Shown one piece after another: positions 20,719-25,180 of a stretch of 25,728 bases of DNA. The notes beneath the pieces were generated by a model. It saw nothing but the letters and a program-made list of their open reading frames with translations, searched no databases and had not been told where the DNA came from. The position numbers were made by a program, and so were the translations under genes. Numbering within the stretch: the first letter of the stretch is position 1; the number at the start of each line of letters is the position of its first letter. This stretch comes from Candidatus Peregrinibacteria bacterium (GTDB lineage Bacteria; Patescibacteriota; Gracilibacteria; UBA1369), in the NCBI GenBank assembly GCA_014728765.1, contig WJLA01000023.1:1-25728 (forward strand), written 5' to 3'.

Positions 20719-20795
20719 GCACCCGTAGCTCAGCTGGATAGAGCATCGGCTTGCGGAGCCGGGGGTCGTAGGTTCGAATCCTGCCGGGTGCACCA
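20719..20795 (+). tRNA. trnR: tRNA-Arg, anticodon GCG, with encoded CCA
   Basis: Acceptor GCACCCG/CGGGTGC plus ACCA; D-arm GCTC-AGCTGGATA-GAGC; anticodon arm TCGGC-TTGCGGA-GCCGG (GCG at 20753-20755); T-arm GTAGG-TTCGAAT-CCTGC; 77 nt. Confidence 0.96.
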
Positions 20796-20796
20796 T

Positions 20797-20832
20797 AAAA
20801 AAATAATATGCCATTCGGCATAGTATTTTTTT
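20797..20832 (+). terminator. Bidirectional-looking intrinsic terminator directly after the tRNA
   Basis: A7-TA-A-TATGCC, loop ATTC, GGCATA-G-TA-T7: 15 of 16 pairs, with a T7 tail. Confidence 0.75.
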
Positions 20833-20962: not shown

Positions 20963-20982
20963 ATCCTGCCGGGTGCACCATA
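20963..20982 (+). repeat. 20-bp exact duplicate of the tRNA 3' end (att-like); first copy at 20778-20797
   Basis: ATCCTGCCGGGTGCACCATA occurs twice, 185 bp apart. Confidence 0.95.
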
Positions 20983-21158
20983 CGCAAATTGCCATGCGCA
21001 GCATGGATAGCAATTTGTGCTTCCTATTAGTGCGTAAGTACCATAGTCCAATCCGCGAAGCTTGAATTGGACCAATATATTAATGTGGTTGAGCTTTGAA
21101 AAATTTATAATTTTTTAATTATTAGATAATATAATTTGATCAGAGCTATTAGCTAGTA

Positions 21159-21214: not shown

Positions 21215-21493
21215 ATGTCTCACATTCAAATCAGAATTGATCAAAAAACCAAGGAAGCTGCCAGAAAGGAGCTAAAAAAGCTTGGTCTTGATATGTCTTC
21301 TGCAGTGAAGCTTTACCTGCATCAGATTATTATTCACAAGGGTATTCCTTTCAGAATTGTTACTGAGAATGGTCTGACTCCAGCAGAAGAGAAGGCAATT
21401 CTAAAAGCATCAAAGGAGGCGAAAAATGGTAAAAATGTGACAAGAGTAATGGGAGTCGATGAGGCTCTTGAATATCTTGATAATTTGAAATGA
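21215..21493 (+). CDS. RelB/DinJ family antitoxin
   Basis: Ribbon-helix-helix N-terminus IQIRIDQKTKEAARKELKKLGLDMSSAVKLYLHQII and GIPF; ATGA-coupled to the toxin. Confidence 0.9.
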   Translation: MSHIQIRIDQKTKEAARKELKKLGLDMSSAVKLYLHQIIIHKGIPFRIVTENGLTPAEEKAILKASKEAKNGKNVTRVMGVDEALEYLDNLK

Positions 21494-21750
21494 GGATTCG
21501 TTATCATAAGTCTTTTTTGAAAAGCTATAGAAAGTTAGATGTAATTACAAAAGGTAAGGTGAAAAACGCCATTGTTTTGTTTTGTCAAAATCCAAAGGAT
21601 GTACGGTTATATAACCATGGCCTAAAGGGGCGTTTGTTTGGAAAGAGGGCTATCAAGGTGACAGGAGATGTGAGGATTATATTTGAAGAATATGATGATT
21701 ATTTGGAGGTATTGTTTTTAGATGTTGGAACACATAATCAGGTTTATTGA
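21490..21750 (+). CDS. RelE/YafQ family mRNA interferase toxin
   Basis: IRYHKSFLKSYRKL, LYNHGLKG, IKVTGDVRIIF and C-terminal DVGTHNQVY. Confidence 0.88.
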   Translation: MRIRYHKSFLKSYRKLDVITKGKVKNAIVLFCQNPKDVRLYNHGLKGRLFGKRAIKVTGDVRIIFEEYDDYLEVLFLDVGTHNQVY

Positions 21751-21758
21751 AAGAATGA

Positions 21759-22367
21759 TTATTTATCTAGCTCATACTTCCTCCAAAGGGCCGGCTTGCC
21801 GTTGTGTGTGCCGTCGTACTCTGAGGAGACTTGTTTGAATCCGAGTGATTCAAAGCTTTTGATGCTGCGGGTGTTGTCTTCCAGGATCCAGGCTTCGAGT
21901 TTGGTGAAATTGCCTTTTTCAAAAGCCCAGTTGATGACTTTTTGATTAACTGCTTTGGCTATGCCTTTGCCCCAATAGCTCGGATCTCCGATGATGATGA
22001 CCATTGTGCCGACTTTTTCTTTAGTTGATTCTTTGATTCCGCTGATGCATGGTGTGCCGATTATTTTGCCGTCGCATTCGATCATCCAGTAGAGTGAGTC
22101 TTTTTCCTCAATGATTTTTTGAATTCGTTCCAGTTCACTGTTTTGATTGATTTTTGTTTGTAGTTCGTCGGCAGAGTACTCAGAGTAATCTGCTCCCATC
22201 AATTGAGCCACCTCTGGTCTGCGCAGCCATTCAACAGATTCAGGAACATAGTTGACGCTTGGAGCTACCAGTCGGATTTGATGATTTGGATGCTCAATTT
22301 CCAATTCTTCGAAGTCGGGGTGATTTTCGAGATAGTTTTCCAAATCTGTGTTGTTTATTGTTTCCAT
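21759..22367 (-). CDS. GNAT family N-acetyltransferase, RimJ/RimL-like; likely start METINN at 22367 (ORF track start 22436)
   Basis: Acetyl-CoA motif A IIIGDPSYWGKGIA and motif B EDNTRSIKSFESLGF; an extended -10 lies 6 nt upstream of ATG 22367. Confidence 0.85.
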   Translation of the reverse strand: METINNTDLENYLENHPDFEELEIEHPNHQIRLVAPSVNYVPESVEWLRRPEVAQLMGADYSEYSADELQTKINQNSELERIQKIIEEKDSLYWMIECDGKIIGTPCISGIKESTKEKVGTMVIIIGDPSYWGKGIAKAVNQKVINWAFEKGNFTKLEAWILEDNTRSIKSFESLGFKQVSSEYDGTHNGKPALWRKYELDK

Positions 22368-22373
22368 CTGGTC

Positions 22374-22382
22374 ATTATACCA
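22374..22382 (-). promoter_or_regulatory. Extended -10 (TGGTATAAT) giving a probable leaderless GNAT mRNA
   Basis: Plus-strand ATTATACCA; 6 nt separate the hexamer from the ATG at 22367. Confidence 0.6.
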
Positions 22383-22410
22383 AATTTTGCGGGAGTTTGG
22401 TAGGCAGTGA

Positions 22411-22821
22411 TTAGACGAATTGATCCCATGCGTCACCTTGTTTTTGGTCTCTGCAGTTTCTGAGAGCTATTTCTTTGGATATCCTTCTGATTTTTATAGT
22501 TTTTGCTTTTTTGAGGTGAGCTTTGGTGAATCTGTGAACTCCATCAAGGATGATCCATTGATTTTGATGAAAATATATTTCGATTGGATAAGAAAGATCT
22601 GTTAAAAGCACTTTTTCTGCATGCGATATTTCTTTTTCAAAGTTATCTAATAGCATTTGTGGGGAGAGGTTCCAGTCATCTGTTCCTTCTTGTTCGAGAT
22701 AGGGGATGCTAAGGTTGTTATCCAAGTCTGACAAGTTGATGGTTTCTGTGGGGATGTCTTCTTGCCAAAGTTTTTCTTCGTCTATTTTGAAGCCGATGTT
22801 GAGGATTTCTGGGAGGGGCAT
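22411..22821 (-). CDS. Small ParB/sulfiredoxin-like fold protein
   Basis: DLSYPIEI...WIILDGVHRFTKA...KTIKIRRI resembles the ParB-N/Srx (I)DGxHR motif; no HTH or dimerisation domain follows. Confidence 0.6.
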   Translation of the reverse strand: MPLPEILNIGFKIDEEKLWQEDIPTETINLSDLDNNLSIPYLEQEGTDDWNLSPQMLLDNFEKEISHAEKVLLTDLSYPIEIYFHQNQWIILDGVHRFTKAHLKKAKTIKIRRISKEIALRNCRDQKQGDAWDQFV

Positions 22822-22830
22822 AATGAGTAT

Positions 22831-24135
22831 TTATGGGGTTAGTCGGTTTGGATCTCTTGGGAATAATTCTGCTTCTTTTACGTTTTCTAGTCCAATGATT
22901 TTTTGAAGTAATCTTGAAATTCCAAGTCCAAAGCCTCCATGGGGTGGGAGTCCATATTTGAAAGCTTCAAGATAATGTGTGAAGCCGTCATCATTTGGAT
23001 TTATTCCCTTTTCTTTTATTTGGGAAATTAATTTTTCGTAATTTTCTTCTCGGAGAGGAATAGTTGCAATTTCAACTCCTCTGAAGATCAAGTCAGCTCT
23101 TTCGGCATATTTGTTATCCGTGGTACTTCTTTTATGGTAGAATTTTGCATCGCTCCATGGAAAGTGTGTTATGAAAACAGCTTCGCAATGCCATTTTTCT
23201 TTGGCGTATTCACAAATAAATTTTTCTTCATCTGGTGAGGCATCTCTTTCTCCGGTGTGATCAATGCCAGTCTCTTTTTTGAATATTTCATGTAGTTCTT
23301 GAAGAGAGATTTTTGGAAATTTTGTACTCAGAACTGGCTTGGAACTGTTAAGTAGATTTAACTGATTTTCTCCGTCTTTCCAAATTTCAGAGACAACATA
23401 AATTAAGAACTCTTCAGACAAAGAGAGAAGTTGGTCAAGATTTTCAATGAATCCAATTTCCATATCGAGCATTAAAATTTCTGTCATGTGTCTGGATGTA
23501 TGGCTTTGTTCAGCTCTGAACACTCGTCCAATCTCAAATACTTTTTCAAAAACTCCTACCATCATCTGTTTATAAAATTGCGGGCTTTGGGCTAGGCAGG
23601 CTTCTTTTTCAAAATAGTTAATTCTGAAAACTTCAGATCCGCCTTCAGTTGGTGTGGCAATTATTTTAGGTGTGCTGATTTCAACAAAATTATTCTTTAT
23701 GTAAAAATCTCTGATGTGTTTTTGGAGAAGTGACAAGAGGGAGAATATTGCTTGTTGTTTTGGATGTCTCAAAGAGACAACTCGTGTATTGAAGAGGGTG
23801 TCCAAATTTAAACTAAGTTCTTTTTTTGTGATATCAATTGGTGGCACATTCTCAATTTGCTGAATGATTTCAAGCTTTTGGCAGTATAATTCACAGCCTA
23901 GTTCTGTGGGAGCCTTTTTTACTTCTCCTTCAACTTGAATGATTGATCCATTTTGTAAGTGTTGAATTTTTTGCTTTAAATCATCGGAGTCTATAACTAT
24001 CTGGCAAAGGCCGTTTTTGTCTCTTAAAATTAAAAAACATATGCTACCGTGATTTCTGATCAAATGTAACCATCCTTTGAGGAGAGCAATTTTACCTATG
24101 TTCTTTGGTAATTCTGATGAGTATATTCTTTCCAT
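22831..24135 (-). CDS. aspS: Aspartate-tRNA ligase, short archaeal/eukaryal type (possibly non-discriminating Asp/Asn)
   Basis: 434 aa with no bacterial GAD insertion. OB-fold KGWLH...FLILRD, TEGGSEVF, LAQSPQFYKQ, motif 2 VFRAEQSHTSRH, motif 3 PPHGGFGLGISR, C-terminal FPRDPNRLTP. Confidence 0.93.
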   Translation of the reverse strand: MERIYSSELPKNIGKIALLKGWLHLIRNHGSICFLILRDKNGLCQIVIDSDDLKQKIQHLQNGSIIQVEGEVKKAPTELGCELYCQKLEIIQQIENVPPIDITKKELSLNLDTLFNTRVVSLRHPKQQAIFSLLSLLQKHIRDFYIKNNFVEISTPKIIATPTEGGSEVFRINYFEKEACLAQSPQFYKQMMVGVFEKVFEIGRVFRAEQSHTSRHMTEILMLDMEIGFIENLDQLLSLSEEFLIYVVSEIWKDGENQLNLLNSSKPVLSTKFPKISLQELHEIFKKETGIDHTGERDASPDEEKFICEYAKEKWHCEAVFITHFPWSDAKFYHKRSTTDNKYAERADLIFRGVEIATIPLREENYEKLISQIKEKGINPNDDGFTHYLEAFKYGLPPHGGFGLGISRLLQKIIGLENVKEAELFPRDPNRLTP

Positions 24136-24319
24136 AGTATTAAAAATTATCCTTACAATTTATTGCAAGGGCGATATTAATACCGCGGTACCACCTTACT
24201 TGAAACTTTTACTGTTTTTCATCAGTTGTGCACTGTTTTGGGCGCATCCCACAGGGTTCTAATCTCCACTATATGGATTTCTTCCCCGAGCTCAGCTGTG
24301 TCAGCAGCATCATAGCTTT
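24136..24319 (-). ncRNA. T-box riboswitch (Asp, GAC specifier) with ultrashort Stem I in the aspS leader
   Basis: Antiterminator AAGG-UGGUACC-GCG...CGC-CCUU (24167-24197). Stem I with K-turn and loop CUGACA (24289-24317), Stem II (24252-24288), IIA/B (about 24230-24251), Stem III (24201-24221), and competing hairpin CCUUGCAAU/AUUGUAAGG (24151-24170). Confidence 0.9.
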
Positions 24320-24325
24320 GAGTAT

Positions 24326-24483: not shown

Positions 24484-24756
24484 TTAATAAACTTCATCAT
24501 GTGCGCCAATGTAGATTGGTCTTATCTGCTGATTTTGGATGATGAATTTGATGATTATTCGATAAGAGATATTGATTGAAATGCTATGTAGTCCTTCGAG
24601 CTTGCCTGATAATTTATGACTTCTTAATGAAGGGTGATTGGGGTTGGTGCAAAGAATTTTTATAATCTTTTGGTATTGATTGAGGAGTTCAGGGTGTTTT
24701 TTGAAAAACTTTTTTGCTCTTTTTTGATAGCTTTCAGTGATAACAAGACTATACAT
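24484..24756 (-). CDS. RelE/YafQ-like toxin (plasmid stabilisation family)
   Basis: ITESYQKRAKKF, NPNHPSLRSHKLSGKLEGLHSISINISYRII and IGAHDEVY; overlaps its antitoxin by 8 nt. Confidence 0.88.
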   Translation of the reverse strand: MYSLVITESYQKRAKKFFKKHPELLNQYQKIIKILCTNPNHPSLRSHKLSGKLEGLHSISINISYRIIIKFIIQNQQIRPIYIGAHDEVY

Positions 24757-25006
24757 TTTTCAGTGATTTAATGTGCTTTTCGGGTGTGGTTATTTTGAAT
24801 TTTCCAGCCTTGATGTCTTTTTCTGTATCTTTGAGAGCAGTTTCAAGCTCCATTTCAAGAAGTGAATTGTATTTCTCAATTGTCAGGACGGCATATTTCT
24901 TTTTACCGTGTACTGTGATGAAAGCTTCCTGATTGTCTTTGGTTTTCTTGCTGAGGATTTGAGATCCTTTGGTTTTTAATTCTTGTGCAGTGATGTCATT
25001 ATTCAT
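24749..25006 (-). CDS. Phd/YefM family antitoxin; likely start MNNDIT at 25006 (ORF track start 25087)
   Basis: ITAQELKTKG...EAFITVHGKKKYAVLTIEKY is the Phd/YefM N-terminal pattern; it lies directly upstream of the toxin. Confidence 0.85.
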   Translation of the reverse strand: MNNDITAQELKTKGSQILSKKTKDNQEAFITVHGKKKYAVLTIEKYNSLLEMELETALKDTEKDIKAGKFKITTPEKHIKSLKNV

Positions 25007-25016
25007 GATACTAAAG

Positions 25017-25066
25017 TTAGTACTATTTATAGTATGTATTTTAGTACTATTTAATAATTTTTGCAA
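25017..25066 (-). promoter_or_regulatory. Promoter and operator of the Phd/YefM-RelE operon
   Basis: Minus-strand TTGCAA (25066-25061), 17 nt, TAAAAT (25043-25038). The 13-bp direct repeat TTAGTACTATTTA at 25017-25029 and 25041-25053 carries the palindrome TAGTACTA in each copy. Confidence 0.7.
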
Positions 25067-25180
25067 ATTCAAGATAGGTTTAAACATAGTAAATATTTCG
25101 GATGAGCTGATTGTACTATTTGTTTCTAAAAAAATATTAAATTTTGTGATTGTTAATTATAATATATGCACTTCATGTGA

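Follow-up and report, generated by a model that had tools for sequence, protein, structure and literature searches.

Can a T-box riboswitch whose Stem I is only 29 nt long control a synthetase gene other than ileS, in a bacterium outside the Actinobacteria? The question is raised by the leader of aspS2, a gene on a 25,728-nt stretch of DNA from a Candidatus Peregrinibacteria bacterium (contig WJLA01000023.1; hereafter the window), in which an earlier note had proposed an aspartate T-box with an ultrashort Stem I in a probable member of the candidate phyla radiation (CPR). All coordinates are positions in the window, and the leader is read on the minus strand. Ultrashort Stem I arms have been described in translational T-boxes, "mostly identified in Actinobacteria" and mostly before ileS, where the short arm is tied to slow, reversible translational control; transcriptional T-boxes generally depend on a long Stem I platform for sufficiently rapid tRNA capture (PMC7583486). 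Structures of ultrashort ileS T-boxes from Mycobacterium/Nocardia (6UFG and 6UFM) are among those cited in PMC7583486. Our analysis indicates that the aspS2 leader is very likely a T-box riboswitch specific for tRNA-Asp that controls a second, archaeal-type aspartyl-tRNA synthetase (AspRS) gene, and that it clearly exemplifies a T-box design which is widespread in the CPR and has apparently not been described.

A scan of the window at Rfam gathering thresholds returned tRNA only and no T-box. With E-value reporting, RF00230 matched 24164-24322 (minus strand) over the whole model (1-219) with 39.1 bits (E = 2.4e-7), and this full-length match makes the leader recognisable as a T-box. In the alignment, 4 nt stand in for 74 Stem I model positions, and it is because this Stem I interior is missing that the leader stays under the Rfam threshold. 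The prediction of a T-box with a truncated Stem I was thus borne out by a model that aligns end to end, as was the warning that models built on a long Stem I might miss it (it scores 39 bits where Rfam's gathering score is 93). The leader has the T-box sequence and an antiterminator with a 7-nt bulge, a specifier that matches the gene and is followed by a purine, and mutually exclusive helices; the internal specifier loop, AG bulge and distal loop/T-loop platform of long Stem I arms are absent. It is the only T-box match in the 1.05-Mb, 91%-complete genome.

Stem I (24317-24289) is delimited by its sequence, by the RF00230 alignment and by covariation among 13 leaders. Its C-stem pairs AGC (24317-24315) with GCU (24291-24289); above it come a 3-nt bulge, UAU (24314-24312), tandem G.A/A.G pairs between two GA dinucleotides (24311-24310 and 24293-24292) in the pattern of a K-turn, a U.U pair (24309 and 24294) and a 4-bp upper stem (GCUG 24308-24305 with CAGC 24298-24295), capped by the 6-nt terminal loop CUGACA (24304-24299), which carries the specifier GAC (24302-24300) and the conserved 3' purine, A 24299. 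The K-turn strands lie 14 nt apart, so there is no room between them for a long Stem I. The C-stem, the 3-nt bulge and the G.A/A.G pattern align with the same UGA...GA motif in most of 13 orthologous aspS leaders; similarity among orthologues starts at the C-stem, with none further upstream, and the C-stem strands are 22-27 nt apart in most of 63 related leaders. On the 5' side, TTGACA (24353-24348) and TACAAT (24331-24326), separated by a 16-nt spacer, form a sigma-70-type promoter on the minus strand that agrees with the consensus at 11 of 12 positions and ties for the best promoter-like site in 20 kb. This near-consensus site confirms the promoter that had been predicted to set +1 near 24319, and its -10 hexamer ends 8 nt before Stem I. 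Promoter-like hexamers lie equally far upstream of Stem I in three orthologues (L021, L023 and L053).

Stem II (24288-24252) consists of a basal helix (CGGGG 24288-24284 with CCCUG 24256-24252), a purine-rich, S-turn-like internal loop (AAGAAA opposite GAUUAGAA) and a distal helix (UCCA 24277-24274 with UGGA 24268-24265). It is followed by the Stem IIA hairpin, UGGG-AUGCG-CCCA (24251-24239), and by UGCA (24232-24229), identified by eye as a possible partner of the IIA loop in a IIB pseudoknot: the loop UGC could pair with GCA (24231-24229), and relatives offer, again by eye, UGY:GCR in close kin and AGU:ACU in family f37. Such a pseudoknot is possible and fits the relatives, at just 3 bp, in an ambiguous register and too short for covariation. 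Stem III (CUG-AUGAAAAA-CAG, 24225-24212) and a purine-rich linker, UAAAAG, lead to the T-box sequence and antiterminator (24199-24165). Here the core sequence AAGGUGGUACCGCG occupies 24196-24183, helix A1 pairs GUAAGG with CCUUGC (24170-24165), the 7-nt bulge is UGGUACC (24193-24187) and helix A2 is GCG(GUA)/(UAU)CGC. Every element described in the earlier note is present, and all of its minus-strand coordinates were correct. MFE (minimum free energy) folding of the whole leader did not give the T-box fold (z = -1.3), a weak test for a ligand-stabilised RNA.

To follow this architecture beyond the window, we built a covariance model from the window leader and two aspS leaders of the same family and applied it to genomes sampled from the order, the class and the phylum. 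It matched in 28 of the 151 genomes of the phylum sample, and related ultrashort leaders were found across the phylum (n=63). Among 13 orthologous aspS leaders, in an alignment fitted to the covariance model and hence biased towards structure, 95.3% of cells were paired, against 71.4% after shuffling and 33-46% when partners were slid, and both sides had changed in a compensatory way in 27 of 34 pairs; none of 500 shuffles reached the observed values. The AspRS proteins behind these leaders are only 37-59% identical, so the compensatory changes span real divergence. They are spread along the leader: the C-stem pair varies between A-U, G-C and G-U and the upper-stem pairs of Stem I covary, all 10 pairs of the two Stem II helices (helices 3 and 4) have changed on both sides, Stem IIA (helix 5) is 100% paired with compensatory change in 3 of 4 pairs, and Stem III (helix 6) is 81% paired with compensatory change in all 4.

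A comparison of the loop codon with the downstream synthetase, suggested earlier as a check, came out in favour of the proposed specifier: the triplet tracks the gene in the 63 related leaders. We took as specifier the three bases before the last loop base, anchored on the window's innermost Stem I pair in the covariance-model alignment, since picking the longest hairpin often took promoter-region hairpins instead, and identified downstream genes by NCBIfam. The 20 aspS leaders carry GAC (9), AAC (8) or AAC shifted by one base (3); of 29 ileS leaders, 18 carry AUC and 2 carry it shifted by one base, the rest being misaligned by an extra hairpin; GUC is found in 7 of 8 valS leaders, and the single trpS leader has UGG. 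The extra hairpin lies between Stem I and Stem II in about 10 of the ileS leaders, where AUC can be seen by eye in the upstream loop. In the window, GAC-A (24302-24299) had been read as an Asp codon matching aspS, and the downstream gene is indeed an AspRS by NF003483. Genes for tRNA-Asp(GUC) and tRNA-Asn(GUU) are present in the genome, each specifying G73 and the CCA end. The GUC anticodon of tRNA-Asp is perfectly complementary to GAC, and the cognate tRNA that the proposal called for is thus on hand.

About half of the related aspS leaders carry the Asn codon AAC rather than GAC. These include the leader of a 'Ca. Peribacteria' metagenome-assembled genome (MAG; L053) and those of TGA-recoded genomes with only a bacterial-type AspRS, and AAC stands at the specifier position in L053/L125-L128 and L153. 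A true asparaginyl-tRNA synthetase (AsnRS) was found in 0 of 7 AAC genomes and 2 of 6 GAC genomes, a small sample with related members; these counts fit, and are at most suggestive of, a role for AAC leaders in the indirect route to Asn-tRNA. The earlier idea of an Asp-specific ultrashort T-box therefore holds as regards GAC and aspS but not as a single case, as the design is common in the phylum and occurs with several amino acids.

The regulated gene, aspS2 (22831-24135, minus strand), codes for an archaeal-type AspRS of 434 aa that belongs to the non-discriminating type; it scores 476 bits with NF003483, whose cut-off is 353. A separate contig (C106) encodes the genome's other AspRS, which is of the bacterial type (L150:92-1861, minus strand; NF001750, 847 bits) and has no T-box. 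With GatB present and no AsnRS above cut-off in the genome, Asn-tRNA is probably made by the indirect route. In the AspRS tree, the T-box-linked protein groups with those of genomes G026 and G032 (support 99/97) within a clade made up of sequences from Peregrinibacteria, Peribacteria and SR1. The suspected CPR origin is in keeping with this placement, the closest AspRS relatives all coming from Patescibacteria MAGs, and with the 1.05-Mb genome; class-level kin include the 'Ca. Peribacteria' MAG and TGA-recoded genomes. The leader was found in only 3 of 36 genomes of the family. No T-box lay within 1.5 kb of the archaeal-type AspRS genes in six genomes of the window's own family, f1 (G002, G010, G013, G015, G017 and G019; L180-L188), whose AspRS proteins belong to other lineages, 35-40% identical and near Chloroflexota and Bacillota in the tree. 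The leader and its own AspRS lineage stay together across families. At the Saccharibacteria and other CPR aspS loci obtained from a protein scan (L031-L058), an upstream T-box was present only in L053.

The end of the leader holds a terminator-like OFF element (24170-24139), an 8-bp hairpin, CCUUGCAA-UAAA-UUGUAAGG (24170-24151), followed by AUAAUUUUUAAU; a scan flagged the hairpin as terminator-like, with a U5 run after it. Its 5' arm includes the six bases of the A1 3' strand, CCUUGC (24170-24165), and since both structures use this strand, antiterminator and terminator are mutually exclusive. The hairpin alone has a folding energy of -8.8 kcal/mol and, together with the A2 hairpin, gives the platform its MFE structure, at -15.4 kcal/mol; for the antiterminator, with A2 limited to its three conserved pairs, the value is -7.5 kcal/mol, and enforcing A1 costs ~8 kcal/mol relative to the MFE. 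As the OFF fold is the MFE structure, the default state would be OFF, as in canonical T-boxes. The competing hairpin and its U-run had been missing from the earlier account of this leader, as had the identity of the gene product as an extra AspRS of the non-discriminating type and the AAC triplet in half of the relatives.

What the OFF element does is less certain than what precedes it. The same T-box sensor might act on translation, with the OFF hairpin hiding the ribosome-binding determinant AAGGA or blocking 30S loading, as could be expected from the ultrashort Stem I T-boxes described in PMC7583486, which are all translational. AAGGA (24154-24150) is the sole Shine-Dalgarno-like motif and does lie in the 3' arm of the hairpin, and the two closest relatives, L021 and L023, have no U-run and, 6-7 nt upstream of the AUG, carry a GGG that may lie in a competing hairpin. 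However, 14 nt separate the end of AAGGA from the AUG at 24135, and the 15 nt before that AUG are unpaired in both folds. Nor were GGAG, AGGA or AAGG enriched, whatever the spacing, in the 40 nt upstream of 536 long open reading frames (ORFs) of the genome, with starts taken crudely as the first ATG, and the organism seems to start translation largely without Shine-Dalgarno sequences. A U5 run follows the hairpin, and more distant orthologues (L053/L125 and L152-L155) have clear terminators, long and canonical with U4-U6 tails. The lack of Shine-Dalgarno use, the U-run, the unpaired 15 nt and the terminators of the orthologues together make termination likelier than Shine-Dalgarno masking; we regard a translational output as unlikely, and consider with moderate confidence that the leader acts through transcription termination. 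Two other explanations concern the sensor itself. If transcription started far upstream, the 29-nt hairpin could be part of a larger, conventional Stem I, and T-boxes with a long Stem I (260-295 nt, 60-83 bits) are indeed found before argG and argF in the window's order. Elsewhere, an apparent one, with GAC in an internal loop, precedes the archaeal-type aspS of a Thermomicrobiales MAG. Such an arrangement is hardly credible here, given that the K-turn strands at the base of Stem I enclose just a 4-bp stem and a 6-nt loop, that a near-consensus promoter directly abuts the hairpin, that the 130 nt from this promoter to the stop codon of the upstream toxin gene (24484) show no T-box features, and that neither the start of conservation among orthologues at the C-stem nor the 22-27 nt between C-stem strands in most of the 63 leaders accommodates it. 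The leader could also be a decaying, non-functional remnant carried along with a horizontally acquired aspS copy: the gene encodes a second AspRS, lies between two toxin-antitoxin pairs and near a tRNA-Arg gene with a duplicated 3' end, and has this leader in only 3 of 36 family genomes. We consider decay very improbable, since compensatory changes keep the pairing across AspRS proteins as divergent as noted above, the functional motifs (specifier and purine, UGGN, A1/terminator overlap) are all intact, and leader and AspRS lineage travel together across families.

A tRNA-Asp-specific T-box that probably works by termination thus remains our preferred interpretation, and several observations weigh against one part of it or another. 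The leader's 39.1 bits fall short of the RF00230 gathering score of 93, and the K-turn and S-turn are deduced from sequence pattern. A search of sequencing runs turned up no RNA run with this locus. The bulge UGGU can pair with an ACCA-3' end; here tRNA-Asp ends in GCCA, which would place U opposite G73 as a wobble pair, and this discriminator-facing base, U in the window leader, is C in 11 of 12 other aligned aspS leaders (the twelfth match, L147, ends before the bulge). With 3 G-C pairs and -8.8 kcal/mol, the OFF hairpin makes a weak terminator, the U-run behind it is broken, and terminator-like sites are not significantly enriched in the window (16 against 10.9 +/- 4 expected). The two closest relatives, L021 and L023, have no U-run, and in L023 the antiterminator itself is the MFE structure; the output may therefore differ within the family.

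On this T-box interpretation, transcription would start near 24319 and the nascent leader would fold into a minimal Stem I with a K-turn, its terminal loop showing GAC followed by A, and then into Stem II with its S-turn-like loop, the IIA hairpin (possibly as a IIA/B pseudoknot) and Stem III. The loop GAC would base-pair with the tRNA-Asp(GUC) anticodon. As the distal T-loop elbow platform is absent, additional hold on the tRNA probably comes from Stem II and IIA/B, as in actinobacterial ileS T-boxes. If the bound tRNA were uncharged, its free 3' end would pair with the bulge UGGU and stabilise the antiterminator (24199-24165), and polymerase would read on into aspS. With charged tRNA, the 3' strand of the antiterminator would pair with 24158-24151 instead, the 8-bp hairpin and U-run would form, and transcription would most likely stop before the AUG at 24135.

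We compared the leader with four known or newly found T-box arrangements. The ultrashort-Stem-I ileS T-boxes of Actinobacteria, reportedly described by Sherwood et al. in 2015, share with it a Stem I shortened to a hairpin whose terminal loop presents the specifier and a purine after it, the lack of a distal T-loop platform, a retained Stem II (S-turn-like) and IIA(/B), and the same T-box bulge and discriminator helix. Unlike them, the window leader pairs GAC with aspS rather than AUC with ileS, belongs to a patescibacterial (CPR) rather than an actinobacterial host, keeps the K-turn pattern at the base of Stem I, and has an OFF element made of a hairpin and U-run with no detectable Shine-Dalgarno use, so that its output is probably termination; AUC/ileS members of the same ultrashort design do occur in the window's order. 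The likeness to the ileS class drawn in the earlier note accordingly extends to the minimal Stem I and stops at the platform, which looks terminator-like rather than translational. Canonical class I T-boxes (RF00230; Bacillus subtilis tyrS and glyQS) resemble the leader in the K-turn pattern at the Stem I base, the order of Stem II, IIA and III, the T-box sequence AAGGUGGUACCGCG, the 7-nt bulge, a terminator that uses the 3' strand of the antiterminator, and a default state of OFF. They differ in possessing the 74 Stem I positions that it lacks (internal specifier loop, AG bulge, distal elbow platform); its specifier is in the terminal loop, and at 39 bits against 93 it is missed by annotation pipelines. 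The leader is a T-box in core and, very probably, in mechanism, yet lies outside the long-Stem-I, Rfam-threshold and ileS/Actinobacteria features.

Two further systems bear on the gene rather than on the arm. According to Saad et al. (2012, 2013; cited in PMC4206432), an Asn-specific T-box is said to control a non-discriminating AspRS and GatCAB in Clostridium acetobutylicum. That arrangement reportedly likewise places a T-box before an archaeal-type, non-discriminating-type AspRS gene kept beside another AspRS, and differs from the window in having AAC instead of GAC and a long instead of an ultrashort Stem I. The aspS leader of the Thermomicrobiales MAG (L082) shares an NF003483 protein (576 bits), a GAC specifier and the T-box core; it has an apparently conventional long Stem I, with GAC in the internal loop and GGUGGUGGGA as distal loop (by eye), and its AspRS falls in a different clade. 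A full-text literature search combining T-box with Patescibacteria, candidate phyla radiation or Saccharibacteria found no such leaders described, TBDB entries being outside its scope. The TBDB class II model was applied only to Actinobacteria and to class I matches with a truncated Stem I (PMC7778990).

A broader proposal is possible, which we hold as tentative and at slightly less than an even chance: that the ultrashort Stem I is the normal T-box form across Patescibacteria, serving several amino acids (Ile, Val, Asp/Asn, Trp and Tyr seen) and acting mostly by termination, and that a single loop base (G/A) retargets aspS leaders between tRNA-Asp and tRNA-Asn according to the use made of the AspRS. 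If true, recognition of the tRNA elbow would not be needed for co-transcriptional, kinetically controlled tRNA sensing. The window leader and its relatives join a minimal arm to terminator-like platforms, to other amino acids and to a different phylum, and could serve as small natural test cases of how little RNA can read a tRNA during transcription. Orthologous GAC and AAC leaders would amount to a natural specifier-swap experiment, tied to the direct and indirect routes to Asn-tRNA. Rfam-based annotation would miss T-box regulation in the CPR, and so, presumably, would a class II search limited to Actinobacteria.

Other T-boxes came to light among the relatives. A search of 150 related genomes with RF00230 gave matches in two size classes, of 260-295 nt, mostly before argG and argF, and of 145-200 nt, before ileS and aspS. 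Leaders L002-L018, from the same order as the window, are long-Stem-I T-boxes scoring 60-83 bits, under Rfam's 93, before argG-like or ornithine-carbamoyltransferase-like genes, and a single order, and even a single genome (G106, G090), can thus contain both long and ultrashort T-boxes. Two leaders of 176-179 nt in this order (L019 and L020) precede arginine-biosynthesis genes; their Stem I is apparently shortened, but an internal loop in which CGC (Arg) would be the specifier seems to be retained, a form that appears intermediate between long and ultrashort. At class level, eight leaders, several from TGA-recoded genomes (L131, L133, L136, L139, L140, L143, L145 and L147), have a self-contained terminator hairpin with a long U-run that abuts A1 and overlaps it by just 1-2 nt, unlike the canonical shared-strand design. 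Three class-level leaders (L138, L142 and L143) precede a gene whose product has a Cys-rich N-terminus (CxxC...CxxC), and two of these (L142 and L143) carry AUC in the Stem I loop.

In the window, aspS is followed on the same strand by two overlapping ORFs (21759-22821, minus strand), which encode a 136-aa protein and a 225-aa GNAT acetyltransferase and are probably co-transcribed with it; the 136-aa ORF (22411-22821, minus strand), between aspS and the GNAT gene, has no Pfam match. A tRNA-Arg(GCG) gene (20719-20795) lies ~2 kb from aspS. The 3' end of this tRNA gene (20778-20804) recurs 185 nt downstream, at 20963-20989, where 24 of 27 bases agree, including all of the first 20. The duplication resembles an att-type scar left by integration at the tRNA gene, and it does not enclose aspS. 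A repeat search around aspS found this duplicated 3' end and no flanking repeat pair enclosing the gene. It is plausible that aspS forms an accessory cassette, perhaps one acquired by transfer. On either side of the aspS operon is a type II toxin-antitoxin pair, RelB with a YafQ/ParE-like toxin (21215-21750, plus strand) on one and Phd/YefM with a YafQ/HigB-like toxin (24484-25087, minus strand) on the other, and the two toxin genes are probably paralogous, since short repeats are common to both.

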